DNA of 64,000 nt, from NCBI GenBank assembly GCA_963744715.1, contig CAVUUR010000010.1, positions 1 through 64,000 on the forward strand, written 5' to 3'. This DNA is from an uncultured bacterium (GTDB lineage: Bacteria; Babelota; Babeliae; Babelales; JACPOV01). How positions within the stretch are numbered: position 1 is the stretch's first letter; each line of letters opens with the position of its first letter. Made by a program: the position numbers and the translations under genes. This document shows, piece by piece, positions 1 through 61,555 of this stretch. The notes beneath the pieces were generated by a model. The model ran no database searches, had not been told where the DNA came from, and was given only the letters and a program-made list of their open reading frames with translations.

Positions 1-102
1 ATTTTTAGAAGTGAGTTTTTGATAGGCAGCAGTTTCTGTTTGCTCCATTGCAAGAGCATTAGTGCATAGCATTAATAAAAACAGTACATAAAACAACTTC
101 AT
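1..102 (-). CDS. Secreted hypothetical protein, 5' part only (runs off left edge)
   Basis: Manual translation MKLFYVLFLLMLCTNALA-MEQTETAAYQKLTSKN from ATG at 102 behind GAAGGAAG RBS; Sec-type signal peptide; not in ORF track. Confidence 0.75.
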   Translation of the reverse strand, partial: MKLFYVLFLLMLCTNALAMEQTETAAYQKLTSKN

Positions 103-234
103 AAAAACTTCCTTCAAGTAAGTAAATAATATAAAACATAAAAAGTTCTATGTAATGTAAAAAAATATTTCTGGTTTGTACAGGAACGTTACAAACAATT
201 TGTAAACTATTCGTTGAACAGCAGCAACGTACAT

Positions 235-1236
235 TTAGCACGGAATAATTTCAGTAATAATACCGTGATGGCGCGCATAAATTTTTGCTTCTGTTTCCAT
301 AACCGCTTTTCTTGAGGCGATCGACTTTTGATTCGATAAATTCCTCTTGTTCATCGATCATATGGAATAATAAATTTCCTGATTCAAGATCTTTTTTGAT
401 CGTTTCGATAACATCAAACGATAAATCAGAACCAGTCAATTCCAAGAAGTACACAAATCGTTCTACTAATGATTTTAATAGATCATCAAGTTCATCTTGA
501 TTTAAAATATCCTCTTGCATAAGGTTATCTAAATGCAGGGAAATATTTTTTCTAAAACCCATGTTTCTGCCTGGTCTAAGGGACTCCAAATAACTTTGCT
601 CATCATTGTTTCTAGTAAACCAATTGTTTTTGTCGTAACTGCTCTTGCGATACGCTTCTGAACAAAGGCACTATGGTGTAATGTTTGAACATTCTGGGAA
701 AGCCCATTAAAGAATTGTTCTGGATCTTTTTTAAATAACGAGAACCCTGATAAAAAAGTTGTATATAATATTTTTTTAACGATATTTTTTGCTTCAACGA
801 ACCATGATACTTGTGGTTGTTCTACAACGTAATCTTTAATCAGCTCAGGGAATCGTGCAAGGACTTGCGATAAAGCATCCGAGGTTATGTATTTGCATGA
901 TTTAATTTTATTGTTAAAAAGACGCAGTGTTGATTGAATATAGCCACTTTCCTGACCACTTTTTTTGCCATATTCTAAAAATTGAATAAGAGGATGAAAC
1001 GTGTGTGGTAAAACTTCTTGAGCAAATTCTTTGCGATTGAACGTATGTTTTAAAAAACAACGCATGCCAGATCGCGTGAATTTTGGTGTACAGAGTGACT
1101 GTAAAAGCTTATCATAGTCAGTGAGAGACTCTTGCACTAACGGTTGAGTAAAATATTGATTATCGAATGTTTTTACATTATTAATAAAAAGAACTAAAAA
1201 CATAAAAAATAAACTATAGACTATTTTTAATTTCAT
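235..1236 (-). CDS. Hypothetical membrane-anchored/exported protein, split by two frameshifts
   Basis: ORFs 529..1293 and 251..589 overlap in different frames; AGGAG RBS before ATG 1236 (MKLKIVYSLFFMFLVLF); a further frame gives a plausible end KAVMETEAKIYARHHGIITEIIPC* at 235. Confidence 0.6.
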
Positions 1237-1360
1237 TGTATTACTCCTAATTAAAAATAGAGTTAATAAACTATTAATAAAGCATCGTAGCATGAAATGA
1301 TTATATTAGGCAAGGTGAGCTTAATAAAAAAGATTTAATTAGTGTTTATGAGGTATAGAG

Positions 1361-2580
1361 ATGGCATTATTTACATATCAAGCATTATCAAAAGATGGTA
1401 AAAAAGTTAAAGGGACTCTTGATGCGGCGTCTCCTGAATCTGTTCGCGAACAATTAGTGAAAAGTGGTTTCTATCCTATTAATATAACCGCAACGACACA
1501 AGAAACGTATACTGGCTTTCAACGAATTATGTCCTTTTTTGCTTTTAGGGTTTCCGTAAAAGAAAAAATTTTATTTACCAAACAACTGTCGGTATTATTA
1601 AAATCAGGTGTTCCCTTGTTGCAAGCATTGGAACTATTAACCGAACAATTCAAGGGCCGACTGCATACCATACTGGTTGATTTAAAAGATGGTATTAAAG
1701 AAGGACAATCATTAGCCGATGGGTTGCGAAAATATCCCCGCGTATTTGACAATATTTATGTGCAATTAGTCAGAGCCGGTGAAGCCAGTGGCAAGCTAGA
1801 AGTTATTCTAGATCAGCTGACAGAATTTATGGAGCGCAGACAAGTTATTACCAAGAAAATCAAGGGGCAATGACCTATCCAATTATTCGATTGAGTATCG
1901 TTGAACTCGTTGTGGTGGCATTATTAGTTTTCGTGTTACCAAATCTTGTACAGAATTTTGCTGCTCAAGGAGTGCAATTGCGATGGGCAACAGCACTATT
2001 GATGGGGATTTCTAATTTTTTAACATCTATTATATTTTTATTATAGGATTTTTAGTCGTTATTTTTTTTGCATTCAGTATTGGAAATCAACAAAGCAAGG
2101 ACGGCGTACGTTAGATTTTTATTAAACTTAAACTGCCCATTATTGGTTTTTTTGCTCGCATGGGAGCGATTGTTCAATTTTCGCGGACGTTGGGTATGCT
2201 TACTGAAAGTGGCGTAAATTTATCTGAAATCATTAGATATCGTAGTTAATATTATTGATAATCGCATTCTAGCTGATGCATTATTTGAAGCGCGTGATAA
2301 TATTATTAAGCAGGGAAGAATTGCCGAATATTTACGGCAAACTAATATATTTCCTCCGATTGCTATTTATTTAATTAATACCGGCGAGCAGAGCGGGCAA
2401 TTAGGTTTTATGTTATTAACTGTTGCTAAAAATTATGAAGATGAGTTATCAGAATATTCAGACACCTTGTCATCATTATTAGAGCCTATTATGTTATTAG
2501 TTATGGCCGTTGTTGTTGGATTTATTGTGTTATCAGTAGTACAACCGATGCTCAATCAAGCATCGTTATTTAATATGTAG
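1361..2580 (+). CDS. gspF: Type II secretion inner-membrane platform protein GspF/PilC family (frameshifted in this sequence)
   Basis: MALFTYQAL...FTKQLSVLLKSGVPLLQAL...LVRAGEASGKLE; continues out of frame with YP..., FSRTLGMLTESGV, GEQSGQL, LLEPIMLLVMAVVVGFIVLSVVQPM to TAG 2580. Confidence 0.9.
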
Positions 2581-2591
2581 AAAGGATTATT

Positions 2592-3011
2592 ATGATACAA
2601 AGCAGAAGGCATCTTAATGCAGGATTTACCTTTATAGAAATTGTCGTTGTAGTATTAATTTTAGGATTATTAATGGGAATTGGTATTCCCGTATATAGAA
2701 CCTTTACTGAAGGTGCCAGGGAGAATACTACCAAAGCTAATTTGAAATTGCTAAAAAGTAGTCTCGATCTCTATCACGCGGAACACAGTAAATATCCTGC
2801 TCGTTTAATTGATTTGGTAGAACGTCCAAAAGGTGATGCAGGAAAAGGTTGGAAACAATATGTACAAAAATTACCAGAAGATGGTTGGAAAAATGCTTTT
2901 TATTATAAAGTGTTACCGGCGGGAAGCAAACATCCGTATGAATTATATTCGTATGGGTCAAATGGTCCAGAAGGTAGTGCACCAGAGGAACGCTTAAGTG
3001 CCTGGGACTAA
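2592..3011 (+). CDS. gspG: T2SS major pseudopilin GspG
   Basis: Prepilin motif GFTFIE plus hydrophobic helix; LPEDGWKNAFYY and LYSYGSNG motifs of the GspG C-domain. Confidence 0.9.
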   Translation: MIQSRRHLNAGFTFIEIVVVVLILGLLMGIGIPVYRTFTEGARENTTKANLKLLKSSLDLYHAEHSKYPARLIDLVERPKGDAGKGWKQYVQKLPEDGWKNAFYYKVLPAGSKHPYELYSYGSNGPEGSAPEERLSAWD

Positions 3012-3561
3012 AGCCGGATTTACGCTTTTAGAATTAGTAGTAGTTATCTTCGTATTGGGATTGCTTTTACGTATTACAGTACCAATGTTTGTGAATCGTA
3101 TACCTGGGTATAAACGTAATGAGTTTATTACCCAGGTTAGTTCGCTTATTAAATTAGCGTGGCAAAATGCGTTGATAACGCAACGCATGCATAGAGTATG
3201 GTTTGATCTTGAAAAAAAAATAATGCGCGTTGAAATAGTCAAACCTAAAAAAAAGGGGAATGATAAAGAAGAGTTTGAGCCGATTTCTGTTTCATATTTG
3301 AAGAGTGAATATCATTGGCCTGAAACATTTTTTATTAAGCAACTATATGTTGACGGAACTAATATTCTCAATCAACCCGGGGTGAAAACAGAAACGGCAT
3401 GGGTTTATGTTTTACCAGAAGGATTAATGCAGCCAACCATTATTAACGTTGTTGATACTGCCGAGTCTGATGAACATAATAATGAAGGTAAACAGATAGG
3501 GCTCGTTGTTAATCCTTTTACTGCGCAACTGAGTGTATATGAAACATTTGCAAAACCATAA
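2998..3561 (+). CDS. gspH: T2SS minor pseudopilin GspH-like
   Basis: GFTLLELVVV prepilin motif; position after gspG; overlapping stop/start. Confidence 0.75.
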   Translation: MPGTKAGFTLLELVVVIFVLGLLLRITVPMFVNRIPGYKRNEFITQVSSLIKLAWQNALITQRMHRVWFDLEKKIMRVEIVKPKKKGNDKEEFEPISVSYLKSEYHWPETFFIKQLYVDGTNILNQPGVKTETAWVYVLPEGLMQPTIINVVDTAESDEHNNEGKQIGLVVNPFTAQLSVYETFAKP

Positions 3562-3955
3562 TACGCACCCAAAAGGGATGACCCTTGTTGAAGTAATGCT
3601 TGCCCTTTTTATGATAGGTACGGTGCTCACTACATTATTTGTACTAGAAAGTACCATTTTTAATAAGGTAGCCGATTATTCAACAAAAATTGGACGTATT
3701 TTTTTGTTAAAAGAAAGATTATTTAAAGCACACTTTGAGCGTGCACAGCGTATAAAAGCACAAGATAAAAAACAAGAAGAAACAACGAATAACGTTACTA
3801 TTTCCTATGAGCTTAAAAAGCCTTCAAAAGATTCAGTATTAAAAAAGTTTGATGGTATTATGATTGAACAAGTAACGGCCTCCTGGGATGAGTTTGGAGT
3901 TCAACAAAAAGAAACGATGATTAATCTTGTATATAAGCCGGAGAAAAAAGAATGA
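3539..3955 (+). CDS. gspI: T2SS minor pseudopilin GspI-like
   Basis: KGMTLVEVMLAL prepilin motif; short length; gene order G-H-I-J-K. Confidence 0.7.
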   Translation: MKHLQNHNTHPKGMTLVEVMLALFMIGTVLTTLFVLESTIFNKVADYSTKIGRIFLLKERLFKAHFERAQRIKAQDKKQEETTNNVTISYELKKPSKDSVLKKFDGIMIEQVTASWDEFGVQQKETMINLVYKPEKKE

Positions 3956-4860
3956 GACTCGGGTTTACGTTGATTGAACTCTTACTAGCCGTTTCCTTTT
4001 CATTGATTTTGATAACAACATTGTTTAATAGTTTTTTTCAAATGACCAGAGTTGTTCATAGCGCCGATCAATTAATGGATAATGATACGCGTATCAGTAC
4101 TATCAACAATCAATTTGAACGAGATATTTCTGGCATTTTTGTTCCGGTTCAAGCAATAACTGAAGCAATACAACCGCAAACAACCCCAGGGTCTGCTCAA
4201 GCACAACCGGAAAAAAAATCACAACCTCTGCAAAAAGTTTTTTATAGCACGAATAAAGAAAATGTAGTATCAGCACTTACCTTTATTACTAATAATCCGA
4301 TACGCATTTATGAAAAAAATAAACAAGGCACCAGTAAGCCGTGCATTGTTCGCGTAGTGTATACCTTGGTTAAAGAAAAAGAAGCTGAAAACTCCTATGC
4401 TTTAATGCGCCAAGAAGGAACAGATTTAAATTATGATGCGTATAAAGCAAAGGCAAGCAAGCCTATTATTGCTTATCAACTTGCTGAGCGGATTAAAAGT
4501 ATTACCGTTGAATACAAAGTTCCCGAGCAAAAAAATAGTAAAGCATCCGAAGATAATAATCCTATAAAATATGATACACATAAAGAATGGCCTGGCAAAC
4601 AACAAGCAGATAAACCGCCATTGATACCGCAATTTATAACGTTCAAAATGATTTTATGGGATGCGCACCGACAAAACGAATATGAATACACGCTCGATTA
4701 TAGCATCGCAGCCTTTGATAGTAATAAGGCACTTTCATTTAAAGCAACTTCAACGGCAGGAACAGCGAAAGATTTGGTTCCCTCGACGACCCAGAACAAA
4801 ACGGGAAAATCAGGTTCGCCTAGAATAAATCCATTTGCAACAACGCAAGGATCGCGATGA
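3952..4860 (+). CDS. gspJ: T2SS minor pseudopilin GspJ-like
   Basis: GFTLIELLLA prepilin motif; FERDI helix end; ATGA overlaps with neighbours. Confidence 0.75.
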   Translation: MRLGFTLIELLLAVSFSLILITTLFNSFFQMTRVVHSADQLMDNDTRISTINNQFERDISGIFVPVQAITEAIQPQTTPGSAQAQPEKKSQPLQKVFYSTNKENVVSALTFITNNPIRIYEKNKQGTSKPCIVRVVYTLVKEKEAENSYALMRQEGTDLNYDAYKAKASKPIIAYQLAERIKSITVEYKVPEQKNSKASEDNNPIKYDTHKEWPGKQQADKPPLIPQFITFKMILWDAHRQNEYEYTLDYSIAAFDSNKALSFKATSTAGTAKDLVPSTTQNKTGKSGSPRINPFATTQGSR

Positions 4861-5921
4861 ACAAAACAACCAATCAGCAAGGGTATGTGTTAGTATTAAC
4901 GGTTATGATGTTGAGCATCGGTATTTTAATGATATCGCAATTTGTACAACAAGGTATGGTTCATGTTCATTTTGATCGCATTATTATTGATCGTGAACAA
5001 GCCCGGTCGATGGCATTGAATGGTATACAGCTTGCTATGAGTCAATTGTCTGTTTTAGATACAACAACGACAACCACTGATAATAATAAAAGCACACAAG
5101 ATTTTTTAGAAAAAGTTTTTCCTGCATTAAACCGTTGGCAAGAAATTACGTTTAATGGTGCCAAGGATGGCGTTGATGGGACGATAAAATTTTGTATTAG
5201 TTCTGAAGATGGGAAAATTGATATTAATCAAGTATTTGATTTTCAGAAAAAAAAATTTAAGAATGAAGATGCCGGCCAAGGCGATATGAAAAAAATAATG
5301 AAAGAGTTTTTTTTAAGCATGAAAAAGTTTAGTAATGATAAAGATTTGTTTGATACATTTGAAAAGTTTTTAAAACAACGGCACTATAAATTTAATGATG
5401 CAACTGAGTTGTTAACTAATGCGGAGTTCCAGACAGTGTTTAGATCTAATATTTTTTATGAACCGCCATCATCTGAACAAGATGTTAAAGAACGTCCAGT
5501 TTTTTTGACCGATATTTTTACTGTTTTTTCACAAAAATCGACTATCCAGCCGTGGTTATTATCTGATTCAATACAAAGAATTTTATCCTTAAAAACGGCA
5601 TATGGTTCTGATGAAAAACAGCGCAAGGATCAGATAAAACAGCTTTTAAAAGAAAAGCCTTTAAAAAAAATGGAAGATGGGGATATAAAAAAAATACAAG
5701 AATTATGGGACACGTATTGGCAAAAAATATATGGAAAAGATTTTAAAAGTTTGCCTCAAGAAATTGTGAATTTGTTTACGTTAAAATTTGAACCAATGGT
5801 ATTTTCTGTGGTATCTTATGGCATAGTCGGCCAAATAACACAGAAAGCACTGGCTATTATAGAAAGATTTAAATCTTCAGAGAACAATACCTTCTTAATA
5901 AAAAAATTGTATTGGCTTTGA
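4857..5921 (+). CDS. gspK: T2SS minor pseudopilin GspK-like
   Basis: QQGYVLVLTVMML (lacks Glu5, typical of GspK); SEDGKIDIN motif; F...TEL motif. Confidence 0.8.
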   Translation: MNKTTNQQGYVLVLTVMMLSIGILMISQFVQQGMVHVHFDRIIIDREQARSMALNGIQLAMSQLSVLDTTTTTTDNNKSTQDFLEKVFPALNRWQEITFNGAKDGVDGTIKFCISSEDGKIDINQVFDFQKKKFKNEDAGQGDMKKIMKEFFLSMKKFSNDKDLFDTFEKFLKQRHYKFNDATELLTNAEFQTVFRSNIFYEPPSSEQDVKERPVFLTDIFTVFSQKSTIQPWLLSDSIQRILSLKTAYGSDEKQRKDQIKQLLKEKPLKKMEDGDIKKIQELWDTYWQKIYGKDFKSLPQEIVNLFTLKFEPMVFSVVSYGIVGQITQKALAIIERFKSSENNTFLIKKLYWL

Positions 5922-9185: not shown

Positions 9186-10448
9186 CTAAAAATTGAATGT
9201 TAGTATGCCTCCGATGGAATTAACTAACAATGCTCGCGATCCATTAAATCCTAATTTATAAAAGGCGGCAAGTTGAGGTTTAATGTATGAGTCATCACAT
9301 ATGTCATGTTGAAAGTCATACGATAGATTGAAAATCATATTATGCATAGTCCACTCTTGTAAGCTTTCCGCAGTATTAGCAACAAGTTCAGAAAACTGAT
9401 TGGTGCATAAAGCAAGTCTATCATCACCATGCTTCCAATATTGGTAGGTTGCACTAACTGATAAACCACGCCATATTTGGTATCCTTCAAGATATATATT
9501 AAATCGCTGTGTAAACCCAAAATCTTTATGCGCATTTACTTTTGCTAAAAATAAAAAATCAGTTTGTTGTGGAAATACTTTGATGCGGCGCAAGCGAGTA
9601 TTGCCAAATAAATAAATAAATTCTGCATCGATTCCTCCTCGAATATGGTCAATCCACGTTATATCGAGTCCGCCTCCAAAAATTAATCCCACAGAACCAT
9701 CAAGGCCAAAGGGAATAAAAAATATTTTATCATCATCTTTTTTTACACCGGTGGGAAAACTTACATTAAGGCGTCCATTTAATTGTACGTCTTTTAAAAT
9801 AGGTTTGCCCTGAGGAAAATTGCGTAACCAATCAACACTAAAAAGAATATCCCCGAGTCCGAGTCGATGCCATCCAGTGAGATTAAGTGTTGAATCAAAT
9901 TCGTGTACTCGTTGCAGTAAAACATCAGTTAAGTTGGTTCTTATAATCTCGTTGGTAGTATCAGTAGGGGTTAAATCAACAAACATAACATTATTAAGTT
10001 TTGCCGAATAAAATGGAACGTGCAAACCAAGCGTAAAATGATGGGCCATATGATAACGGAAAGCAAGGCCTCCTGCTTGTACATTAAGATGTCCGGTTAC
10101 ATTAAAATTTCCTCGTACACCATCATCTGTTGGGCTGTCAAGTACCGTATTGAAAAAAATTGACATAGGGCTTGATGCTGGAAATCCTTGAAGCATGGCT
10201 AATGCATCTTGGCGAGGAGTAAATATTTGCAAAGGATTAACTTTTTCGCCTTCGGCATTAAAACCTTGTACTTTTAATCCTTGCTCAAACCAACCGGTAA
10301 CCTGAATTTTTGTCCCATGCCAATATGGCGGCCTTAAGTTAATATCCCATGGTCTAAAAAGATTTATAGGAAACATGCCGAAAAGCGTTATAGAAAAACT
10401 ACTACATACTATGATCAAAAATATTTTATGGTGTATTCTCAAATTCAT
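9186..10448 (-). CDS. Putative outer-membrane beta-barrel protein
   Basis: Signal peptide, alternating amphipathic strands, C-terminal GGILTFNF with terminal Phe (BamA beta-signal-like). Confidence 0.65.
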   Translation of the reverse strand: MNLRIHHKIFLIIVCSSFSITLFGMFPINLFRPWDINLRPPYWHGTKIQVTGWFEQGLKVQGFNAEGEKVNPLQIFTPRQDALAMLQGFPASSPMSIFFNTVLDSPTDDGVRGNFNVTGHLNVQAGGLAFRYHMAHHFTLGLHVPFYSAKLNNVMFVDLTPTDTTNEIIRTNLTDVLLQRVHEFDSTLNLTGWHRLGLGDILFSVDWLRNFPQGKPILKDVQLNGRLNVSFPTGVKKDDDKIFFIPFGLDGSVGLIFGGGLDITWIDHIRGGIDAEFIYLFGNTRLRRIKVFPQQTDFLFLAKVNAHKDFGFTQRFNIYLEGYQIWRGLSVSATYQYWKHGDDRLALCTNQFSELVANTAESLQEWTMHNMIFNLSYDFQHDICDDSYIKPQLAAFYKLGFNGSRALLVNSIGGILTFNF

Positions 10449-13120: not shown

Positions 13121-13843
13121 TTAAGAATTATTATTATCCTTATCTTTGGAATGTCTTTTTATTGGTGACATTTTTGCGAATCTATCTTTAATTTTTCTCA
13201 AGGTGGGGGATCCGCTTGGTGAAGTAGACTGCGGTGAAGATGAGCCAGGAGATCCAGTTGTGCCTCTTCTTCGCATGAACTGAGTAGTTCCAGAAACCCA
13301 AGGAAAAATGTCATTTAAACGTTTATTATATACCGTTGTGCCGTAGGTTAATTTAGTATCATCATCTTTATCTGGTTGTGCCCGATCAAGTTCGTAATAT
13401 ACTGTTTCGATAAAATTACAAAGGTCTCGTTTTGTTTGTTTTTCTTCTTCAAAAAGTAAACGATTAACAATATCGGTAATATCAAGCGGGTCATAGTTAA
13501 TAAGCGGTAAATTAAAATTGATAACACCATCTCCCTGAATAATAGATACTTGTTGTGATTTGCTCTCAAATCCGTTATTTTTTCCATGTTTTTGAGTAAT
13601 GACTAATGCTTGTGCCGCAAGAACAAGTGGTTCATAAAAAGGATTTATCCCTTTGAATTTTTTATTTTCTAGGGCTCTGTTATAAATAATGTCAGCATAT
13701 GAGTTATCAATTTCATCATAAGGCCCCTCGATTTTGTTGGTGTAGGAACTAATACGTTCTTCCATAGCAATGATACAAGGGAGATTGCATAGAGTACTTA
13801 GCATGATCATCAATACAACATGGTTATTCATAATACCCACCAT
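13121..13843 (-). CDS. Secreted hypothetical protein with Ser/Pro-rich basic C-terminal tail
   Basis: Signal peptide ending CIIA-MEE; tail RRRGTTGSPGSSSPQSTSPSGSPTLRKIK...SPIKRH; start may be 13831. Confidence 0.7.
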   Translation of the reverse strand: MVGIMNNHVVLMIMLSTLCNLPCIIAMEERISSYTNKIEGPYDEIDNSYADIIYNRALENKKFKGINPFYEPLVLAAQALVITQKHGKNNGFESKSQQVSIIQGDGVINFNLPLINYDPLDITDIVNRLLFEEEKQTKRDLCNFIETVYYELDRAQPDKDDDTKLTYGTTVYNKRLNDIFPWVSGTTQFMRRRGTTGSPGSSSPQSTSPSGSPTLRKIKDRFAKMSPIKRHSKDKDNNNS

Positions 13844-21380: not shown

Positions 21381-22763
21381 TTAAGCATGTGTCGATAAAT
21401 CATACAGCGGTTCGCGATTGGTTTTCCCTTCCGATAATAAATGCTCGCCTTTAATAGTAATGCGATGTTGTTGTATATAATTAAAAATTGTTCTATAGGT
21501 TAATGCGCGTTGTAGTATGTTGCCATCGATAGTATAAAATGATGGAACCTGCGTCGAGTTAGCGACAGCAAATCCATAATATCTATGTGAAGGGTTAGTT
21601 ATTTTTGATCGGGGATGAAAAAATTCTCCTCGTGCCACTGCGCCGGCAAGGGTTGTAAGGAGAGGAATATGAAACATATTACCGAGTTTTCCATCCACAT
21701 ACTCTTTTTTTGATAAAGGTAGTAAGTAGCCAATGCGTTGCTTGCACATATGAAAATAAGCAGTGGCCCCAGTATCAAAACGATAACCGGCAAATAATGA
21801 ATTGCCGAAGGATAAAGATATTTCTGCATTCGTGGGTTTGGTATCATACCAACTAGTGCCTCTATACAATAGCCACTGCGCTTTTTTTTCTGCATCGTAT
21901 TCTGTCGTAAGTATTTTTTCAAGATGATCTTTATCCAAAGAATCTATTTTTGAGTGTTGGCAATATTCTTGATACGCTGATTGTTTAAAATCAGTATCAC
22001 TATGGATTTTCATATAATCATGTTGATGAGCGGTACTTGGATTTAATGAACGTTTTTTTAAAAAATCAACAATATAATTATTAAGAAATAAATGACATTT
22101 TTTTACTTCTAACGTTCTGTTTATTTCTTCAAAAGGCAACGCAGTTTGATCTAAAAAAGTTTTTTCAAGGGAAGTTGTTAATGCAGGTTCTCCTCGATTG
22201 AAATATGATTGATAATGAGGGTAAGTATTGTAGAGCAACCCCCCCGAAGCTTTTTTAATAGTTGTTTGGTTGTGATCGATATAATTCATGAAAAAAAGTT
22301 CATACATCGTAGTTGGTATAAAGGCAACCTTAATACCAGGAAGTTTCTCAGCAAGTTGTTGTTGCATTGCGGCAATTTCATTATCATGATAATTGTTATA
22401 CAACGTACTCATGGGAAATTGATAATGCAGTTTAATATCGTAAATAATTTCATGTTCTTTTTCGCAAATGGGTGAACCATCTTCCTTATAGAATACTGTT
22501 TCTGCTTGTGCGGTATGTGATTGTTTAACGTTGCGCGCAACAGAAGCTATCCCGCCCAATAGAGCATGAATGCTTTTTGAAGCGCTTTGGCCTATAGTAT
22601 GTGCTTGTTGTGTAAACCAAGTACTGATGTTTGCTAGTAATGGTTGTGCGCTAGAAGTTATGTTAATTGCTGGTTGAGTATTTTCTTTTTTTGCTTGCGC
22701 AGATAGTGGCATACATGCAATAGTAATCAGCATTGTACCAGTTATAAAACGTAAAAAATTCAT
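21381..22763 (-). CDS. Secreted hypothetical protein, paralog A
   Basis: Signal peptide; collinear similarity to 22795..24162; LLYRGT / SLSFGNSLFAG / GEFFH motifs. Confidence 0.8.
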   Translation of the reverse strand: MNFLRFITGTMLITIACMPLSAQAKKENTQPAINITSSAQPLLANISTWFTQQAHTIGQSASKSIHALLGGIASVARNVKQSHTAQAETVFYKEDGSPICEKEHEIIYDIKLHYQFPMSTLYNNYHDNEIAAMQQQLAEKLPGIKVAFIPTTMYELFFMNYIDHNQTTIKKASGGLLYNTYPHYQSYFNRGEPALTTSLEKTFLDQTALPFEEINRTLEVKKCHLFLNNYIVDFLKKRSLNPSTAHQHDYMKIHSDTDFKQSAYQEYCQHSKIDSLDKDHLEKILTTEYDAEKKAQWLLYRGTSWYDTKPTNAEISLSFGNSLFAGYRFDTGATAYFHMCKQRIGYLLPLSKKEYVDGKLGNMFHIPLLTTLAGAVARGEFFHPRSKITNPSHRYYGFAVANSTQVPSFYTIDGNILQRALTYRTIFNYIQQHRITIKGEHLLSEGKTNREPLYDLSTHA

Positions 22764-31669: not shown

Positions 31670-31692
31670 ACTTTTTTTGGTTCGATATATAC

Positions 31693-36590: not shown

Positions 36591-36671
36591 AGCAATGTTC
36601 TTTGATAAAAAAGTTATGCAGGTAAATATTTTTGCTGTGGATACTAAATTGCTGTACATCACATGAGCTAC

Positions 36672-37457: not shown

Positions 37458-37523
37458 AGTAATTTTATTTGTTTATGCGTTAAACGTTTTTTTAATATAT
37501 GGTTGTTCATAATGCGCGAAAAA

Positions 37524-37554
37524 AGAGTACAATAAAAATTTGTAAATTAAAAGA
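37524..37554 (-). promoter_or_regulatory. Array promoter/operator motif copy 3
   Basis: TACAA-N7-TTGTA at 37528-37544; TACTCT -10. Confidence 0.7.
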
Positions 37555-37697
37555 TTATTTTATTTCGATTGCTTATTTTTTATAAAGGAATTATATGAAA
37601 TATAGAAATGTCGGCATACATTCTCATAATGATTGATTTATGCGAAGTGCAACTATATGGGGGTAGTGGTTATTACGGTAAAGTGAAGAATGAATTA

Positions 37698-38888
37698 TTA
37701 TCCTCTTTTTCTTTTTCTCGATTGCGTGTTTTCCTCTCGAGCATAGTTCATCCGAGGGTTTTGCTCTAAGTACTTAATAATTTCCGTATGCCTATTTTCC
37801 GTGGCATACTCGAGTGGTGTTTTTCCATGATCGTCGCACATAAAGATGTCATGCCCGTGCCCCTCAATTAAGAATTTACATGCATATAATGATCCGGCTG
37901 CAGCCGCTAAATGTAAAATAGGTTTTGGCCGTGTTGGGATCCTTTCATTCTGGCATTGTGTCATAGTTTGTTCGGCATTTAGGTTTTTCAAACGTTCTAC
38001 CCTAGTGGTTTGTAGGCATCTGTGGATCGATTTACGCGCACTACCATCATCCGGGATGTAATCAATCGGAATTTGCCCATTATTATCTTTCGTGAAACAG
38101 CTAAAATTATATCTTCTAAGTAATTTTGTTACCAATGTGCCCGCACCTTTTGCAGCCGCTAGATGTAAAAGTGTTGCACCATTTTCAAAACGAGCATTAA
38201 GATAAACTTTTTCGGGGGTTTTTTCTATTATCGCCAGAATATTGGATTGTGTGCCCCGACGCGTATCGAGTAATTCGAGTTGCTCACAGATTTTTGATTT
38301 AAAAGTCTCTAGATTTTCTTCTGTGGGAGTATCCGGGTCATCCAAATATGGATATTCATTCGCGTATACGGCGTTCACGGCGTTTCTTAGATAGTTTGTG
38401 GTCATTGTATGTTTATTGTTACGAGCATAATCGATGGGAGTTTCCCCGTTATCGTCTTTACAGAGGGGATTAAATCTATATTGTTCCACCAACGTAATAG
38501 CTGGAGCGAGCAAACCTGCTTGGGCTACTAGGTGCAAAGGTGTTGCACCATTTTCAAAACGAACTTCCGGATAAATTTCTTCGGGAATAGTTGCTAAGAA
38601 TGATAATAGCTGTGAGATATTATGTTTGAGTGGGCCCTTGCTCAGGAAATTTTCTTGAATATAGCTTACGGCCCCATTAATAGCCATAGTTTTTTGGGGA
38701 TCGACTTCTCGTATACTGAACCGTGTGGTTATGTTATCAGCGTTATTTTCATCGAATGATAAATTTGGGACAGATGCTTCGTTTAAAATCTCTCTAATAT
38801 CTATTATTTGTTCTATTTGTTCCATACTCAAGAGCCGCAAAGGAAATATCAAATAGGTAAAAATATATTTTTTTATATAAATTTTCAT
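37698..38888 (-). CDS. Secreted ankyrin-repeat family protein (member 6, three A-type modules, C-terminal NLS-like)
   Basis: MKIYIKKY...FPLRLLS-MEQ; three LHL(V/A)A...GKTP-type repeats; ends QSRKRKRG. Confidence 0.9.
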   Translation of the reverse strand: MKIYIKKYIFTYLIFPLRLLSMEQIEQIIDIREILNEASVPNLSFDENNADNITTRFSIREVDPQKTMAINGAVSYIQENFLSKGPLKHNISQLLSFLATIPEEIYPEVRFENGATPLHLVAQAGLLAPAITLVEQYRFNPLCKDDNGETPIDYARNNKHTMTTNYLRNAVNAVYANEYPYLDDPDTPTEENLETFKSKICEQLELLDTRRGTQSNILAIIEKTPEKVYLNARFENGATLLHLAAAKGAGTLVTKLLRRYNFSCFTKDNNGQIPIDYIPDDGSARKSIHRCLQTTRVERLKNLNAEQTMTQCQNERIPTRPKPILHLAAAAGSLYACKFLIEGHGHDIFMCDDHGKTPLEYATENRHTEIIKYLEQNPRMNYAREENTQSRKRKRG

Positions 38889-38964
38889 AGTAATTTATTT
38901 TTTGTAAAAAATTAAACATATACTATTATCATGAGGTTTATATATAAACGAAACGAGTGGAAAA

Positions 38965-38995
38965 AGGGTACAATAAAAATTTGTAAATTAAAAGA
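38965..38995 (-). promoter_or_regulatory. Array promoter/operator motif copy 4
   Basis: TACAA-N7-TTGTA at 38969-38985; TACCCT -10. Confidence 0.7.
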
Positions 38996-39001
38996 TTATT
39001 T

Positions 39002-40402
39002 TTATTCCAGCATCTTTTTTTTCTTATCTTGCTGCTGAAGTGGTTTTATTCGTTTGTTTTTATCTGTTTTACCATTCTTTTTTTCTATGGCGATGCATCG
39101 TTTATTTACCGTCTTGACTTCCTGGTACTGATTGATTTCATTTGCTTTACTAGCGGATAATTTTTGTAGTGAGTCAAGTATGGTATTGCTATTTTCGCCT
39201 GGAAATGATGACGTGTTTGGCGTTTCTAATTCTTCTAGCGGTTGATTTCCTTTTACGTGACCAAATTCTAAGTATTTAATAATTTCCGTATGCCTATTTT
39301 CCCTGGCATACTCGAGTGGTGTTTTTCCATGATCGTCGAGCATAAAAGGACTAAATCCGCGTTCTTCGATTAAAAATTTACATACATCTAATGATCCAGT
39401 TGCAGCCGCTAAATGTAAAATTAGTTTTGGAGATGTAAGAGGTGTATTAATGGATGGAGCGGCAGTTTGTGGAATACTTAGTTGTTGCCAGCGTTCTAAT
39501 CGCTTATAAAAACTCTTTACGTTGCGGTGTAACCACGTGCGGATCGATTGATTTGGATAATCGTTTGTGACATAATCAATTGGAGATTTTCCATTATTAT
39601 CCAGCACGAGAGGATTAAAATTATATGTTTGAACCAATTCTTTTACTGCTTTAAACGCACCTATTCGAGCTGTTAGGTGTAAAACTGTTGCACCATCTTC
39701 ATCTTCAAAACGGGCATTGAAATAAATTTTTTCAGGGGTTCTCTTTATCATTTTGAGAATACTATTCGAAATATGACCAGTATAGCCTGATGTGAAATAT
39801 TTACGGATTTTTACTTTAAAACTCTTCAACTCTTTTTCCGTAGGAAAATCTTTTTCCTGTAGATATTTTTCGTACAGTGTTCTTTTTAGATCTTTTAAAT
39901 AGCTACTAGTTTGTTGATGGTTATTGTTCTGGGCGTAGTAAAGTGGCGTATTTCCCTTATCATCTTTGCAGAAAGGGTCAAGTTGATAGTGTGTAACCAA
40001 TGACACAACTGCTCGCAGTGCTCCAGCTGCTGCTACTTTATGTAAAAGTGTCTCTCTATTTTCAAAGCGAGCTGCGGAATAAACCTCCTTGGAAGTATCT
40101 TGCAGGAGTGATAATACGTTGTCTGAAGTATTTTTGTGTCGAGCAACATCGTGGGAAAAATATTTCGTAATTTTTTTCTTAAAAAATTCAATAGATATAG
40201 TGGGTTGAGTATCTACTTTGTTTGTATTGAGTTCATGTGCGTTTATGTTATCAGTATGTAATATGTTATTTTCATCTATGAGCGGTAAGATTTGGGTGTA
40301 TAGTTTATTGAAACTGTCTGAATTATTTGATTGCATGCTCAAAAGCTGTAAAGGAAATATCAGATAGGTAAAAATATATTTTTTTATACAAGTTTTCATC
40401 AT
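39002..40402 (-). CDS. Secreted ankyrin-repeat family protein (member 7, three A-type modules)
   Basis: MKTCIKKY...FPLQLLS-MQS; ETLLHKVA, ATVLHLTA, ILHLAA; basic tail KNKRIK...DKKKK. Confidence 0.9.
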   Translation of the reverse strand: MMKTCIKKYIFTYLIFPLQLLSMQSNNSDSFNKLYTQILPLIDENNILHTDNINAHELNTNKVDTQPTISIEFFKKKITKYFSHDVARHKNTSDNVLSLLQDTSKEVYSAARFENRETLLHKVAAAGALRAVVSLVTHYQLDPFCKDDKGNTPLYYAQNNNHQQTSSYLKDLKRTLYEKYLQEKDFPTEKELKSFKVKIRKYFTSGYTGHISNSILKMIKRTPEKIYFNARFEDEDGATVLHLTARIGAFKAVKELVQTYNFNPLVLDNNGKSPIDYVTNDYPNQSIRTWLHRNVKSFYKRLERWQQLSIPQTAAPSINTPLTSPKLILHLAAATGSLDVCKFLIEERGFSPFMLDDHGKTPLEYARENRHTEIIKYLEFGHVKGNQPLEELETPNTSSFPGENSNTILDSLQKLSASKANEINQYQEVKTVNKRCIAIEKKNGKTDKNKRIKPLQQQDKKKKMLE

Positions 40403-40464
40403 TACTCATTGTACCTTTCATAAAAAATTTAAATATAGCTTCGAGGATTCATACAATTTGAGAA

Positions 40465-40495
40465 AGGGTACAATAAAAAATTATAAATTAAAAGA
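40465..40495 (-). promoter_or_regulatory. Array promoter/operator motif copy 5
   Basis: TACAA-N7-TTATA at 40469-40485; TACCCT -10. Confidence 0.65.
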
Positions 40496-40499
40496 GATA

Positions 40500-41097
40500 A
40501 TACTTTGATCCCCTGACTGCGTAGGCTGGAGTGGTATTTTTTCTTGAAGGCTTTTTCCTATACTTGTTTGCTATACTCGTACCAACTTTTTTTTTCATTT
40601 TTATAGTGCTCGTTTCCATCATCCGTTGCCAGTTCTTGTAGTAAAAGTAAATATAGTATCACTATTTTCACCAGGAACGGATGGCATGTTTAGTATTTCT
40701 GATACTTCTAGAGACTGATCTAATTATGCTTTGTCTTGTCAGTTGTTAAGGACTGTAAGTATAGTTTAGTTTTTCGATACGTACTGTTATTAGCGTAATC
40801 GAGTGGGGTTTTTCCATGATTATCTGTAACTAGAGGATCAAAGTTATTTTGCATGACTAAACATTTAATCGTTTCCGAAGCTCCTACGAAGCTAATTTAT
40901 GAAAAATTGTTGCACCATTTTCAAAACGAGCTTGAGAATAAATTTCTTTAGGAGTATCTCGTAGGATGGGAGTCATGCATTCCGATGCGTGATTAAGATA
41001 ACCTGGTTTGAGAGAGTAGTCATTAATTATTGATATAAAACTATCCACCGTTGTTATCGGTCCTCGTCGCCGTTTTTTATTTGTAGTGGCTGCGGGT
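40500..41097 (-). pseudogene. Frameshifted second ankyrin module, probably the 3' half of 41098..41790
   Basis: Shifted frame reads NEPAATTNKKRRRGP...TPKEIYSQARFENGATIFHKLAS/VGASETIKCLVMQNNFDPLVTDNHGKTPLDYA; 40791-40977 is a near-copy of 41208-41395 with a 1-nt deletion; 3' boundary approximate. Confidence 0.75.
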
Positions 41098-41790
41098 TCA
41101 TTTTGGGGCAGATGACATGTTTAGTGCTTGTAAAGACTTATCTAGTTGTACTTTATTTTTGCTAGCCGTTAAATATTGTAAACATATTTTAGTTGTTCCT
41201 CTCTGACTAGCATAATCGAGTGGAGTTTTTCCATGATCATCTGTAACTGAAGGATCAAAATTATTTTGCATGACTAAATATTTAATTGTTTCCAAAGCTC
41301 CTACCGAAGCTAATTTATGAAAAATTGTTGCACCATTTTCAAAACGAGCTTGGGAATAAATTTCTTTAGGAGTATCTCGTAGGATGGGGATCATGGATCT
41401 TGACCCTTGGTTAATATAACGTGCCTCGAGAAAATAGTTATTAATTACCGATGTAAACCTATCAACAGGCGTTATTGATTTACGTAGGCGCTTTTTACTT
41501 GCAGTTGTTGCCTCTTTAGTAGTGTCATTGGTTTGTTTTTTTAATTCATCAGAACTAGGTCGAAGTTGGTATTCACTAGTAAGATATCGATCGATGCCTT
41601 CCGCGTTGGGTTGGTTTACAAGAAGTAATTTGGTTTCATCGGTAGAAATATTTGCTGATTTCTGTGCAGATAGTTGGCTATATTTTTGATTATTCTTAAC
41701 GTCAAGATCTAAACTGTGCTGATGCATACCCAATAATTGCAAGGGTAATATCAAGTTAATTAAACTATAGTTTTTTATATAGATTTTCAT
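41098..41790 (-). CDS. Secreted ankyrin-repeat family protein (member 8, module A; probably extends to ~40500)
   Basis: MKIYIKNY...LPLQLLG-MHQ; SKKRLRK; GATIFHKLA...GKTPLDYA. Confidence 0.85.
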   Translation of the reverse strand: MKIYIKNYSLINLILPLQLLGMHQHSLDLDVKNNQKYSQLSAQKSANISTDETKLLLVNQPNAEGIDRYLTSEYQLRPSSDELKKQTNDTTKEATTASKKRLRKSITPVDRFTSVINNYFLEARYINQGSRSMIPILRDTPKEIYSQARFENGATIFHKLASVGALETIKYLVMQNNFDPSVTDDHGKTPLDYASQRGTTKICLQYLTASKNKVQLDKSLQALNMSSAPK

Positions 41791-45663: not shown

Positions 45664-46140
45664 ATGAAAGTATGTATAAAAAAATATAGTTTTATGTGTT
45701 TGCTATTTCCTCTGAGAGTACTGAGTATGGAGCAGCAGGATTTAGATTCGTATATGAAAAGGCTGATCACAGAATTTAATAACTTTAAGAATACCGATGT
45801 TTATAAGCAAAAGTTACCATCGGATCAAAGACAAGGTATGGGTTGTGGCAATGAAGGCTATTCAGCCGATAATAATAATGTACGCAGTACTGGTAAACGT
45901 GGGTCTGAATTTTTTATTGAACATACTGGGGATAAATCAGCTCAAAAAGGTATTTACGAACGATTGGATGAAGAGGGGAATACCATAATGCACATAGCAG
46001 CAATGCGTGGGCAAGAATCATTTTTAGGAAATCTTTGGCGAAACGGTGTTTCTATGGATATAAAAAATAGTAGTGGACAAACTCCTAATCAGTTATTGGA
46101 GATATTCAAGAAACAAAAAAATATCGTCGATTGCGAATAA
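45664..46140 (+). CDS. Secreted ankyrin family protein (member 9, outlier, module B)
   Basis: MKVCIKKYSFMCLLFPLRVLS-MEQ; GNTIMHIAA...GQTPNQL. Confidence 0.85.
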   Translation: MKVCIKKYSFMCLLFPLRVLSMEQQDLDSYMKRLITEFNNFKNTDVYKQKLPSDQRQGMGCGNEGYSADNNNVRSTGKRGSEFFIEHTGDKSAQKGIYERLDEEGNTIMHIAAMRGQESFLGNLWRNGVSMDIKNSSGQTPNQLLEIFKKQKNIVDCE

Positions 46141-46148: not shown

Positions 46149-46568
46149 TTATTTATAGTGGTTGCGGTCCTTATGTTTTTTAGAATTGCTAGAAAATAAA
46201 TCGGGATTGTTAGTAATATAATTTTGCAGTAAAGAACATAGTTCTTCGGGAGCCTTGAATCCGTTAGCAATAGTGAACATGTTGCGAATAGTTTCTGGAT
46301 TTTTTTCTGCTAGTAGTTGGTGCTTGTTATTAACCTGTAGCGTCTGCATTATATCGGTGAATTTAAAATTGATTTTTATATGATTTTGATCTTTTGGAAA
46401 GGCTTTGAAAACGCTTAAAGTACCTTGGTGAACATACATAGTAAGATCAGTACATTCTAACTTTATCATGATAAGTTCGCAATCCATTGCCCATGAAAAA
46501 TTGATCTGGGCCGCTAAAGAAAAAAAGAAAAACAGCAAACAATTCTTGATCATAGGTATTTCTTTCAT
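46149..46568 (-). CDS. Secreted protein, possible BTB/Skp1-like fold
   Basis: Signal peptide FSWA-MDC; IKLECTDLTMYVHQGTL...F and MFTIANGFKAPEELCSLL resemble BTB landmarks. Confidence 0.5.
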   Translation of the reverse strand: MKEIPMIKNCLLFFFFSLAAQINFSWAMDCELIMIKLECTDLTMYVHQGTLSVFKAFPKDQNHIKINFKFTDIMQTLQVNNKHQLLAEKNPETIRNMFTIANGFKAPEELCSLLQNYITNNPDLFSSNSKKHKDRNHYK

Positions 46569-58194: not shown

Positions 58195-59583
58195 TTATAG
58201 ATGTGCACCGTGTTGTTTTAAGTAATTATAGATTTTTTTATTATTCGCATATGCTAGCGCGGTTTTATCATCCAAATCACGGGCATTGATAAATTGCTCA
58301 AAGTCAAATGAATCAAGGCCTAATACCTCTTGGGCTCGTTCAACAAGCATCTGTATAACGTCGAAAGAAATTTCATCGTCCGTACTAATATTAGCAGCAA
58401 GAAGTAGTGGTGTAAAACCATTCAGTTCTCCCTTCTGATTAATAAATTGCATAAATAATTTTTTATCGTTTCCAAAAAGTTTTTTTTCATTTTCTATAAG
58501 ATTTTTTGTAGTATGATAATGATGTCGTTGAATGGCTAGATGTAGCGCGGATCGACCATGAATGTCGCCAATGGTTAGAAAGAACATAGACAATTGTTCA
58601 TCGTCAAAGTATTTTTTTACCGCATCAAGGATGATAGAAATATAGTCTTTGTGACCATTGGCTGCTGCGTTTATTAGTGGCGTCCATCCAGCATCATCGC
58701 GTGTAGTAATGAGATAAAGAAAGTCTTTTGGGTCTGAGCTAAATTTTTCTCTTGCCTCATCTAATAAACTTTCCAATTTGTCTGTATATCCTGAATGAGA
58801 GGCGTAATGCATTAATAATTTACTCATCCTATGTTGTTCTGTAGTCGCTTTATCTTCTTGATGATCGACGGCTTGTGCTGCTTTATGATTGAGTAAAAAA
58901 ATTCTATCTCCAGGATCAACTGATAAATCCAAAGCTGTTCTTCCAAATGCATCCTTGGCATTAATGAATTCTGAGAACTGTTGAGAGTCTGCTCCAAAAA
59001 CATTTTGTGCCTGATGAACAAGAGCGGTAATAATATCACCAATACTGTGAAAGACTGCTAGCATTAAAGGATTTAGTTGCAAGTGTTTGGTGTGTCGCGT
59101 CAAAAAATCAAAAAATGATTTTTTATCATTTTTATATAATTGTGCCGTAGCTTGAAGTAATTGTTTGGTTACTGGTATATTATGGCGCTCAACAGCATGA
59201 TATAACGCTGTTTTTCCATGACTATCTTGTTCATTTATGATTTTAGCCAACAGAACAGTATTAGCATCTAGTACATCGGTCATAGTATTCAAAATAAGAC
59301 CAACTCGCTCAGTATCGCCCAGGCTTACCGCATGCATTAAGGGGGTCCATGGAATACCTTGTTCTGGCAAACCGGTTGTCATTACCTTAACAAAAGCTTG
59401 AGGATTGTGCCCATAGGCGGCAACAATTCTTTGAAGAGCTTGTTTAACCGCATTGGTTGACCGACCATGTAAGGCATTAATGAGATTTATGGATAGTTTT
59501 TGAGGTGAATTGGTTGCTGTATAATGAGATTCTGTAGATATATGCCATAGGCCGCATAGTATCAAAAAATATATTTTTTTCAT
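58195..59583 (-). CDS. Secreted ankyrin-repeat protein with helical inserts (different family from the array)
   Basis: Signal peptide; WTPLMHA, GKTALYHA, GWTPLINA, GRSALHLA, GFTPLLLA; two-fold internal duplication. Confidence 0.88.
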   Translation of the reverse strand: MKKIYFLILCGLWHISTESHYTATNSPQKLSINLINALHGRSTNAVKQALQRIVAAYGHNPQAFVKVMTTGLPEQGIPWTPLMHAVSLGDTERVGLILNTMTDVLDANTVLLAKIINEQDSHGKTALYHAVERHNIPVTKQLLQATAQLYKNDKKSFFDFLTRHTKHLQLNPLMLAVFHSIGDIITALVHQAQNVFGADSQQFSEFINAKDAFGRTALDLSVDPGDRIFLLNHKAAQAVDHQEDKATTEQHRMSKLLMHYASHSGYTDKLESLLDEAREKFSSDPKDFLYLITTRDDAGWTPLINAAANGHKDYISIILDAVKKYFDDEQLSMFFLTIGDIHGRSALHLAIQRHHYHTTKNLIENEKKLFGNDKKLFMQFINQKGELNGFTPLLLAANISTDDEISFDVIQMLVERAQEVLGLDSFDFEQFINARDLDDKTALAYANNKKIYNYLKQHGAHL

Positions 59584-59832
59584 TAGTTCCCCTAAAAGCT
59601 GATATTCATTATTGGTATAATGTCTATGATTTAGGTTTATAATACAAAATAAAAAATTATAATTGCAATAATTGTCACATAAAAATCCTGCTTATTTACC
59701 ATTGCCACCCACTTGTTCCAATTAGGGAATTATTATATACTTATATTCATAGTGATTTATATTTATTTATTTTTTATTTGTAAATATAAATATCAAAACA
59801 GTATAAAAATATAGATATTTTATGGGAAAATC

Positions 59833-61164
59833 ATGATGTTGAAAAAAATTGTTTTTATTGGTTTTATTGCGATCAATGTCTATCAAAGCATCTCTTCTTA
59901 TCACCTGGTCTTTCCTAAAAGCTTCTTAAAAGGGGTAGGCTTTTCTTCATTTCAGAATGGGGGCTCGTATTGGGGCATTAATAATTGGAATTTGTTTGAA
60001 GACAAAAAAACCATGTTAGGAAGACCTACTATAGCACTTGGACAAGTATCAGGCAAAGGTGCAGGCTTCTGGCAAAAGGCGTTTGAAGATATTCGATTAA
60101 TGAAAGAACTTGGTTGCAATGCCGTTCGTTTTTCAGTTGAATGGGCAGAAGTTGAGCCAGAAGAAGGTGTTTTTAATGAAAAAGCACTTGCGTTTTATGA
60201 GAAATATTGTTCTGCGCTTATTAAAGAAGGAATTATTCCAACCATAACCTTACACCATTTTACGCATCCGCTATGGTTTGAGCAAAAAGGTGGTTGGGAA
60301 CGAGAAGAAAATATTGCTTTATTCGTTCGTTTTGCGCAAAAAGTTTTCGAACGCCTTGGTACTAAAGTATCCATTTGGTATACCATCAATGAGCCTACGG
60401 TTTATAGTTTTATGGGATATATTTTAGGTATGCATGCTCCTGGAAAAATATTTCATATACAGACCGCAGGAATCGTACTAAAACATCTGCTTCAAGCACA
60501 TGTAGCAACGTATGCTGCTCTAAAAAAAATGCCAGGAGGCGATCGTGCACAAATAGGGTTAGTTCATCAAGTGCTTAAGGCTCAAGGATATTCCCCATGG
60601 CACCCGGTTGGCGATGTAGTAGCAGGTTTTTTAAATTTTTGCTCTGCACAAGAATGTGTGAAGAATTTTCTTAAAACCGGTGATTTTAATTATTATTTAC
60701 CGGGGATGGTGAACATTAAGTATCAAGATACCAATGCTTGTAATTCTTATGATTTTATCGGTATTAATTATTATTCACGCGTTGTTGTTAGATTTGGGCC
60801 AACTTGTTATCCGCATGAAACAATGACCGATATGGAATATCCAATTTTTGCCCAAGGTCTTTATGATACTATTGTTGAAATGTCTGAGCTTGGGGTTCCC
60901 ATCTATATTACCGAAAATGGCATTCCGGATAATGACGATACGCGACGAGATCAATTTATTAAAGAATATTTATGTTCTGTGTATCGTGCACTTGCCGATG
61001 GTTATGATGTGCGCGGGTATTTTTATTGGACATTAATGGACAATTTTGAATGGGATCGAGGATTTACCATTAAATTTGGTCTTTATGATGTTAATAGAGA
61101 AACGCTAGAACGTACATTACGCAAAGGCGCTTACGCGTTTCGTGATTTTTTTATTATTAAATAA
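59833..61164 (+). CDS. Glycoside hydrolase family 1 with N-terminal signal peptide
   Basis: RFSVEW, TLHHFTHP, TINEP (acid/base), IGINYY, ITENG (nucleophile), DNFEW. Confidence 0.93.
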   Translation: MMLKKIVFIGFIAINVYQSISSYHLVFPKSFLKGVGFSSFQNGGSYWGINNWNLFEDKKTMLGRPTIALGQVSGKGAGFWQKAFEDIRLMKELGCNAVRFSVEWAEVEPEEGVFNEKALAFYEKYCSALIKEGIIPTITLHHFTHPLWFEQKGGWEREENIALFVRFAQKVFERLGTKVSIWYTINEPTVYSFMGYILGMHAPGKIFHIQTAGIVLKHLLQAHVATYAALKKMPGGDRAQIGLVHQVLKAQGYSPWHPVGDVVAGFLNFCSAQECVKNFLKTGDFNYYLPGMVNIKYQDTNACNSYDFIGINYYSRVVVRFGPTCYPHETMTDMEYPIFAQGLYDTIVEMSELGVPIYITENGIPDNDDTRRDQFIKEYLCSVYRALADGYDVRGYFYWTLMDNFEWDRGFTIKFGLYDVNRETLERTLRKGAYAFRDFFIIK

Positions 61165-61273
61165 ATAATAAATGTCTCATCAATAATTAAAGATTATAAT
61201 AAAAATTGTTGATTTTATTCATTTTACTAGTACAATTTGTTAAAAAATAAATTTTCTAACAAAAATTAAGATA

Positions 61274-61555
61274 ATGGATTGTATGAATAAAACAATATTT
61301 TTAGTAATAAATATTTTGTGCATGTCAAAACTTATGAGTATGGAAAAAGATATCTTAGAAAAAGAGATACATGAGTTTAAAAATGATTATATATCATTTA
61401 TGAATGGGATATTTATTCCTAATATTTATCTACATTCCGAATTGCTATTGCAACAAGCGAAGGGACATGAGCTTCAAGAAATACAAATGATTCAACGAAG
61501 TATAATAATCTATAGCAATCAACATTATGCTCCAGCAAGCGATCCCATAGCATGA
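61274..61555 (+). CDS. Small secreted hypothetical protein
   Basis: MNKTIFLVINILCMSKLMS-MEK signal-like leader. Confidence 0.55.
   Translation: MDCMNKTIFLVINILCMSKLMSMEKDILEKEIHEFKNDYISFMNGIFIPNIYLHSELLLQQAKGHELQEIQMIQRSIIIYSNQHYAPASDPIA

Follow-up and report, generated by a model that had tools for sequence, protein, structure and literature searches.

Methionine followed by Glu or Asp at the predicted signal peptidase cut of likely host-acting proteins in a Dependentiae bacterium, with an anchored acetyltransferase as the candidate capping enzyme

The window analysed here, a stretch of 64,000 nucleotides (contig C10:1-64000), belongs to the genome G000 (1.26 Mb, 35% GC) of a protist-parasite bacterium from the phylum Dependentiae, and the named homologues of one window protein are of Candidatus Babeliales / Dependentiae / TM6. 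In the exported proteins of this bacterium that are likely to act in the host, methionine, mostly followed by Glu or Asp, is placed directly at the predicted cut of signal peptidase I (SPase I), and a membrane-anchored GNAT enzyme of its own is likely to acetylate the new end for stability, a reading to which a probability of about 0.48 is given. All cleavage sites are predictions of our own heuristic, which scores the -3 and -1 residues and is blind to the +1 residue. The 1277 genes were called by our own codon model, and the genome-wide set comprised 387 proteins with a signal-peptide-like N-terminus and otherwise free of transmembrane segments, while a refined signal-peptide call on the same genome gave 374 proteins. 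The peptidase LepB is represented in G000 by one PF10502 match (E 1e-36), canonical-looking and with visible Ser and Lys motifs.

Met was found to be the commonest +1 residue of the set (89 of 387 proteins, the next being Gln with 39), with Met counts of 1-19 at the 14 neighbouring offsets. Permutation across the mature positions 1-12 in 2000 runs gave a mean of 16 and a maximum of 28 against the 89 observed, and a chance origin is excluded genome-wide. Single-linkage clustering spreads the 89 proteins over 67 of 272 families. After Met, the +2 residue was E in 33, D in 25, Q in 7 and N in 4 proteins, i.e., E/D/Q/N in 69/89; E and D together amounted to 51/298 after a non-Met +1 residue and to 37/493 at position 2 of the non-exported proteins, whose native starts read mostly MN, MK and MI rather than ME or MD. 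The claim of a first-pass annotation of the window that Met occupies the predicted SPase I +1 position, mostly followed by an acidic residue, thus holds genome-wide. Fifteen residues were tried in turn ahead of D/E at a small-residue site; Met was counted in 92 genes and every other residue in at most 20. The -1 residue was A in 47%, S in 25%, G in 13% and C in 11%, a distribution partly built into the predictor, with L, I, V, S, A or C at -3. Among the paralogue families, 17 include a Met protein, and in these the conservation peaks at +1 (0.62, a value to which the site call itself contributes), compared with 0.37 at -1, 0.27 at +2 and at most 0.31 at the other positions. The refined call places Met at +1 in 112 of the 374 proteins.

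To see how the motif is distributed among protein classes, Pfam was run on the window proteins and on the first 450 residues of 371 proteins encoded elsewhere in the genome, and the classes were assigned by hand. Met +1 occurred in 20/30 proteins with ankyrin, WD40, leucine-rich repeat (LRR) or C2H2 zinc-finger domains (22/30 by the refined call), against 3/38 envelope and periplasmic housekeeping proteins, such as TolB, Skp, BamA, GspD, substrate-binding proteins, thioredoxins, amidases and others (Fisher p 3.5e-7), and 1/43 other exported enzymes (GH1, GH18, phospholipases, C11 peptidases, glycosyltransferases). Counted by family, the figures were 5/7 for the repeat class, 3/31 for the envelope and 1/31 for the enzymes (5/7 versus the pooled 4/62, p 2e-4). 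Proteins without a family carried it in 65/263 cases and false signal-peptide calls in 0/13. These counts agree with the earlier proposal that the residue singles out proteins bearing host-type domains and not those of the envelope, the frequency in housekeeping proteins being by no means equal. An N-terminal motif that we take to be BC-box-like, a name that the Pfam search did not confirm, was present in 7/112 Met proteins (three families) and in 0/262 others. A ten-member exported WD40 family (G000 C12:110894-114700, C4:36631-38950, C7:68584) has this motif right after Met in several members, which are candidate adaptors for host cullin ligases.

The spread of the motif was followed in 151 phylum genomes, 149 of which are ankyrin-rich relatives, with the use of an in-frame-enriched DNA pattern (start, hydrophobic codons, Ala/Ser-Met-Asp/Glu) and a control with Met and Asp/Glu swapped. 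The pattern matched 756 times versus 113 for the control, with 108 genomes above the control and 16 below, and five or more matches were reached in 53/151 genomes versus none for the control. It was strong in the families f1, f2, f7, f8, f13, f17 and f18, and moderate in f5, f10 and f12; it could not be seen in f3, f6, f9, f11 and f14-f16 (1-3 genomes each), nor clearly in f4. Met +1 is kept in nine or more phylum families. Sampling of relatives covered 36 stretches (15 families; signal-peptide calls in 23 genomes), where Met was at +1 in 26/236 proteins and at the other offsets in 0-9. At the ankyrin loci L062-L088 of three relatives (G041, G040 and G090), the predicted mature ends apparently read, by eye, Ala/Ser-Glu/Gln and not Met-Glu/Asp, which may be a NatA-type variant of the Met rule. 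Outside the phylum, the signal-peptide proteins at ankyrin loci had Met +1 in 0/23 cases in Holosporales and in 0/18 in Rickettsiales. Forty Alphaproteobacteria with the ATP/ADP translocase (TLC) gave 9/111, some of the proteins being effector-like, with 0-5 at the other offsets; the pattern and control counts were 66 and 45 in 51 TLC-bearing genomes and 180 and 198 in the remaining 350 (p 0.03), a hint of convergence and no more.

In the available text of PMC5837995 and PMC10653852, the Q-rule of Bacteroidetes goes with a cyclase bound to the membrane, through which exported proteins gain stability, and this analogy led to a search for an exported modifier enzyme in G000. Of its two PF00583 matches, one is the candidate, resembling an N-terminal acetyltransferase (NAT) and having the GNAT fold with an acetyl-CoA motif; its N-terminus consists of basic residues followed by a 19-residue hydrophobic helix, an anchor retained in 3/3 metagenome homologues. 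Basic residues preceding a helix stay cytoplasmic by the positive-inside rule, and on this ground the catalytic domain is predicted to lie outside the cytoplasm, either anchored or released. The best PDB matches of a four-sequence profile were three chains of Naa30, the catalytic subunit of NatC (E 2.6e-10 to 1.4e-7), followed by RimI-type and archaeal Ard1 N-terminal acetyltransferases, with all the top five being NATs. The AlphaFold model (pLDDT 77) has Ard1, RimI and NatC among its structural neighbours, but small-molecule GNATs at tied Z, and the best NCBIfam match, the RimI equivalog TIGR01575, was reached with 48.8 bits, yet under the cut-off of 86.4. An invariant Tyr-Tyr-Lys-Lys-Lys loop might, speculatively, be the site for the acidic second residue.

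The anchored GNAT is present in 124/151 phylum genomes, mostly in a single copy, and in every sampled member of 11 families, while seven families gave no match to the G000 query. Across 116 genomes outside the own family, motif counts rise with the likeness of the GNAT to the copy in G000 (Spearman 0.56, compared with 0.07 for the control pattern), and they do so within f2 (0.57) and f8 (0.52) too. With the TruA similarity and genome size held fixed, the partial r was 0.51 over 73 genomes and 0.52 over 47 genera, with TruA, the single control gene of this test made without tree correction, correlating at -0.06 with the motif count. The literature search, with subscription papers and supplements outside its coverage, found neither an extracytoplasmic bacterial N-terminal acetyltransferase nor a paper on the Met rule in Dependentiae, and a 2026 review of bacterial N-terminal proteoforms names no such enzyme in its available text (PMC13515050).

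In the window itself (Table 1), the 19 Met motifs listed by the first-pass annotation and its three counter-examples were all located in their places, each with a leader of the n/h/c type. The sequence M-[EDQN] is present in 16/19 sites, the exceptions being MFP, MVQ and MHQ, and the Met-blind heuristic cuts directly before the Met in 17/19, missing the proteins at 9186 and 27986. The description of these as 19 proteins from unrelated families stands for the sites and is overstated for the relatedness, since the nine array members are paralogues sharing one leader and the window, therefore, holds about 11 independent cases. In the DNA alignment of the array, the Met ATG and the middle base A of the +2 codon are invariant and the conservation collapses beyond +3; the -1 residue is Ser, Cys or Gly, and the +2 residue is Glu, Gln, Asp or His. 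The ankyrin matches go past E 0.001 in six of the nine members and are weak in the remaining three. The beta-barrel candidate at 9186 had been brought forward as a case refuting the rule and does not serve as such, because its Met column varies among the 119 aligned homologues (I 33, F 26, M 20, L 12; C-terminal Phe in 116), which makes the Met an incidental residue at a variable hydrophobic position lying outside the rule. The Atlas lead for this protein is PF13557, at 21% of one cluster. The barrel belongs to an unannotated Dependentiae family of 136 homologues with the C-terminal Phe and a conserved N-terminal Asn-x-Phe-Arg-Pro-x-Asp motif, which several further signal-peptide proteins of 400-500 aa in G000 resemble.

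Table 1. Coordinates of the Met motif proteins of the window, their neighbours and the anchored GNAT (hyphen in the motif, predicted cut)
Feature	Position	Strand	Remark
Leader of 18 aa and Met +1, ALA-MEQ	46..102	-	Met codon 46-48; gene runs off window
Genes for type II secretion (a gspF fragment, gspG and others of pseudopilin type)	1361..5921	+	Pfam T2SSF, T2SSG
MlaD/MCE-domain protein, 530 aa	5937..7529		Directly behind the pseudopilin genes
Outer-membrane beta-barrel candidate, MFP	9186..10448	-	Met 10374-10376
Orphan exported protein, IIA-MEE	13121..13831	-	Met 13763-13765; homologue search returned only itself
Paralogue of the AQA-MVQ protein	21381..22763		Without the Met
Exported protein, AQA-MVQ	22795..24150	-	Met 24085-24087
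Small exported protein, TLC-MQQ	24292..24567	-	Met 24502-24504
Exported protein, INA-MDN	27044..27970	+	Met 27092-27094
Exported protein, IHT-MDH	27986..28582	-	Met 28502-28504; weaker site, not called by the Met-blind heuristic
Eight ankyrin-type array paralogues	30696..41790	-	21-aa leader ending S/C/G, then Met
Array genes, first four	30696..31577, 31738..32964, 34711..35379, 35424..36590	-	
Array genes, last four	36672..37457, 37698..38888, 39002..40399, 41098..41790	-	
Exported protein, INA-MNM	33153..34139	-	Met 34083-34085; within the ankyrin array
Ninth array member, VLS-MEQ	45664..46140	+	Met 45727-45729; weak ankyrin match
Exported protein, SWA-MDC	46149..46553	-	Met 46485-46487; sub-threshold Skp1 match, E 0.006
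Counter-example, signal-peptide ankyrin protein	58195..59583	-	+1 not Met
Small exported protein, LMS-MEK	61283..61555	+	Met 61340-61342
Anchored NAT-like GNAT	G000 C6:187531-188109 (L022:14110-14688)	-	PF00583; behind truA

The type II secretion system (T2SS) genes of the window are likely to serve a second export step; the four genes after gspG gave no match in the Pfam search at 1e-4, and GspD and GspC are encoded on contig C3.

The Met rule would work like the Q-rule and resembles the mature end left by the Plasmodium PEXEL processing, being a member of neither. As far as the available text of the Q-rule papers goes, both have a lineage-wide favoured residue just past the SPase I cut, and the membrane-attached, periplasm-facing enzyme that caps the new N-terminus for stability under the Q-rule would have its counterpart here in the GNAT candidate. 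However, the Q-rule residue is Gln instead of Met (here Q 39 versus M 89 of 387), its modification is cyclisation instead of the acetylation predicted here, and the strong E/D preference at +2 is a property of the Met rule; according to the same text, the Q-rule extends over all compartments (at least 48%) and at least 60% of the signal-peptide proteins, whereas the Met rule is limited to host-type proteins (20/30 versus 3/38 and 1/43) and to about 23-30%. For the PEXEL of a vacuolar parasite, the available text of PMC10653839 describes a processing that leaves E/D/Q second on host-bound proteins, with acetylation following the cleavage, as is proposed for the Met rule, and this mature end xE/Q/D is matched by the Met sites (E 33, D 25, Q 7 of 89). 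The Met rule differs in being bacterial, in its fixed first Met, in the predicted ordinary SPase I in place of RxL and plasmepsin V, and in that a PTEX-like machine was not identified. The predicted mature ends match the eukaryotic NatB class (Met-Asp/Glu/Asn) in 69/89 cases, and Naa30 chains, of NatC, are the best profile matches of the anchored GNAT. However, NatB and NatC act co-translationally on ribosomes, with auxiliary subunits and on the initiator Met (available text of PMC3130931), whereas the Met here is internal and would be exposed only once export has taken place, and the enzyme proposed, a bacterial protein, consists of one subunit anchored at its N-terminus; NatC, moreover, prefers a hydrophobic +2 residue. 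RimI, the N-acetyltransferase of the ribosomal protein S18, shares the GNAT fold, while the anchored GNAT scores far below its cut-off (TIGR01575) and has the conserved hydrophobic N-terminal helix preceded by basic residues. RimI is a soluble cytoplasmic enzyme.

In the mechanism preferred here, the part observed is a Sec-type leader with a small -1 residue and then Met-E/D/Q/N, enriched in the ankyrin, WD40, LRR and zinc-finger proteins. LepB would cut directly before the Met, the anchored GNAT would move an acetyl group onto the new Met end's alpha-amino group, and the capped protein would exit via the T2SS and reach the host cytosol. The delivered protein would then bear an N-terminus like that of an ordinary NatB-type eukaryotic protein, and the cap would shield it from aminopeptidases and host N-degron pathways, the enzymes of which signal-cleaved proteins encounter on reaching the cytosol (available text of PMC8037982). 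Capping by the bacterium is favoured over that by the host NatB, since an export-tagged NAT-like enzyme is encoded by the bacterium itself and since NatB sits on ribosomes, which makes a protein delivered after translation a doubtful substrate. A further-reaching version, an extracytoplasmic N-terminal acetylation pathway with a coded Met-Glu/Asp exposed and capped by a dedicated anchored enzyme, as a passport and shield for Sec/T2SS effectors passing as host proteins, is put forward only tentatively. Several observations weigh against bacterial capping or a strict rule: the refined call leaves 8/30 repeat-domain proteins without Met +1; a three-member exported F-box-like family (G000 C4:4220-7130) lacks it as well, with its motif near the mature N-terminus; nuclear localisation signal-like motifs were not enriched among the Met +1 proteins; the correlation of GNAT with the motif is absent within f4, f5 and f7 and was controlled with one gene, without tree correction; the families f10 and f12 carry the motif with GNAT undetected; and an acetyl-CoA carrier was looked for and not found.

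The families f10 and f12 would be better accommodated by a mimicry imposed by the host, with no bacterial enzyme, in which Met with a large second residue escapes methionine aminopeptidase (MetAP) and the Arg/N-degron recognition, a host NAT may or may not acetylate it later, and the anchored GNAT has some other role. Small, MetAP-permissive +2 residues are found at 9/89 Met sites versus 90/285 others, predicted N-degron residues are freely exposed by envelope proteins (25/38) and exported enzymes (26/43), and the seeming Ala/Ser-Glu/Gln ends in some relatives and the weak echo in the unrelated host-dependent Alphaproteobacteria point the same way. This explanation is, nevertheless, considered unlikely, as NatB and NatC are ribosome-associated, the co-variation with GNAT is left unexplained, and the absence of Met +1 at the ankyrin loci of Holosporales and Rickettsiales indicates that the host pressure for Met is not general. 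The mature Met-E/D end, acetylated or not, may instead be read as a sorting signal by a second translocation step (the T2SS or a vacuole-membrane translocon), separating host-bound from periplasm- or vacuole-resident cargo like the Plasmodium PEXEL end, which is compatible with the bacterial capping. The sharp split of the classes, with exported hydrolases nearly motif-free (1/43), would suit it, as would the T2SS encoded in the window, the only secretion system reported for Babela in the available text of PMC4378268, and the mature Plasmodium N-termini, which decide export and are acetylated (PMC10653839, in its available text); such a role is rather improbable given the 8/30 repeat-domain proteins without the motif, paralogue pairs that disagree, several ankyrin-rich relatives with zero pattern matches, and no receptor identified for the Met-E/D end.

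A functionless Met, as a neutral relic of a recombination-spread leader cassette ending in Met-E/D or of leaders joined to captured genes at their former start codon, is quite improbable. The DNA conservation of the array does stop just past the Met and the family members mostly agree (8 all-Met and 30 without Met of 47 paralogue families), but the leaders of the different families share only the generic pattern while Met occurs in 67 of them, the native starts are MN, MK and MI, not ME or MD, and the Met outlasts the flanking positions within families and is still found in no fewer than nine phylum families. Finally, the first-pass annotation had offered the Met as an internal start giving a cytosolic isoform, for which it may be said that the residue is Met and that ATG also starts native genes. 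This is rejected as very improbable, because Shine-Dalgarno motifs precede 0/89 inner Mets versus 42/89 upstream starts; the A content upstream is the same as at non-Met sites, alternative starts are nearly absent (+1 codon before D/E: ATG 58, TTG 2, GTG 0), and the ankyrin or WD40 isoforms have no evident use within the bacterial cytoplasm.

Apart from the motif, Sec-exported polymorphic-toxin-like proteins with PT-HINT (intein-like) domains were noted in G000 (C2:54842, C9:1728 and C9:142251), one of them with an Ntox21 tip. Some usually cytoplasmic enzymes carry export signals or anchors (C2:106015, C12:94169, C12:44288, C12:143791-148400), namely nucleoside diphosphate kinase, a DOT1-like methyltransferase, a LigD phosphoesterase domain, and glycosyl- and methyltransferases. 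The genes valS (14426-16877), groEL (54648-56295) and gspF (1361-1873) of the window are frameshift-split into several open reading frames, and typA on C6 is also apparently broken; these breaks are probably assembly indels rather than pseudogenes, so that some short proteins of this genome may be truncated.

The phylum papers (PMC4378268, PMC6561590, PMC4776705) describe numerous ankyrin proteins that carry a signal peptide, as well as a T2SS, with the residue after the cut unmentioned in their available text, and for Chromulinavorax 44% of the coding sequences were given a signal (PMC6561590, available text). With such a share of Sec-exported proteins and the type II system only, the question is how the host-bound proteins are distinguished and stabilised. 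The Met-E/D rule is a computable effector marker for these organisms, with 85 of the 112 proteins called here having no Pfam family, and together with the anchored GNAT it makes a two-component hypothesis that is testable in vitro and in E. coli without parasite genetics. If the further-reaching version above is true, bacteria would have an equivalent of the acetylated PEXEL end known from malaria parasites, and the motif would provide a sequence rule by which some 100 effectors could be called in each genome of a phylum that lacks the type III and type IV secretion systems.

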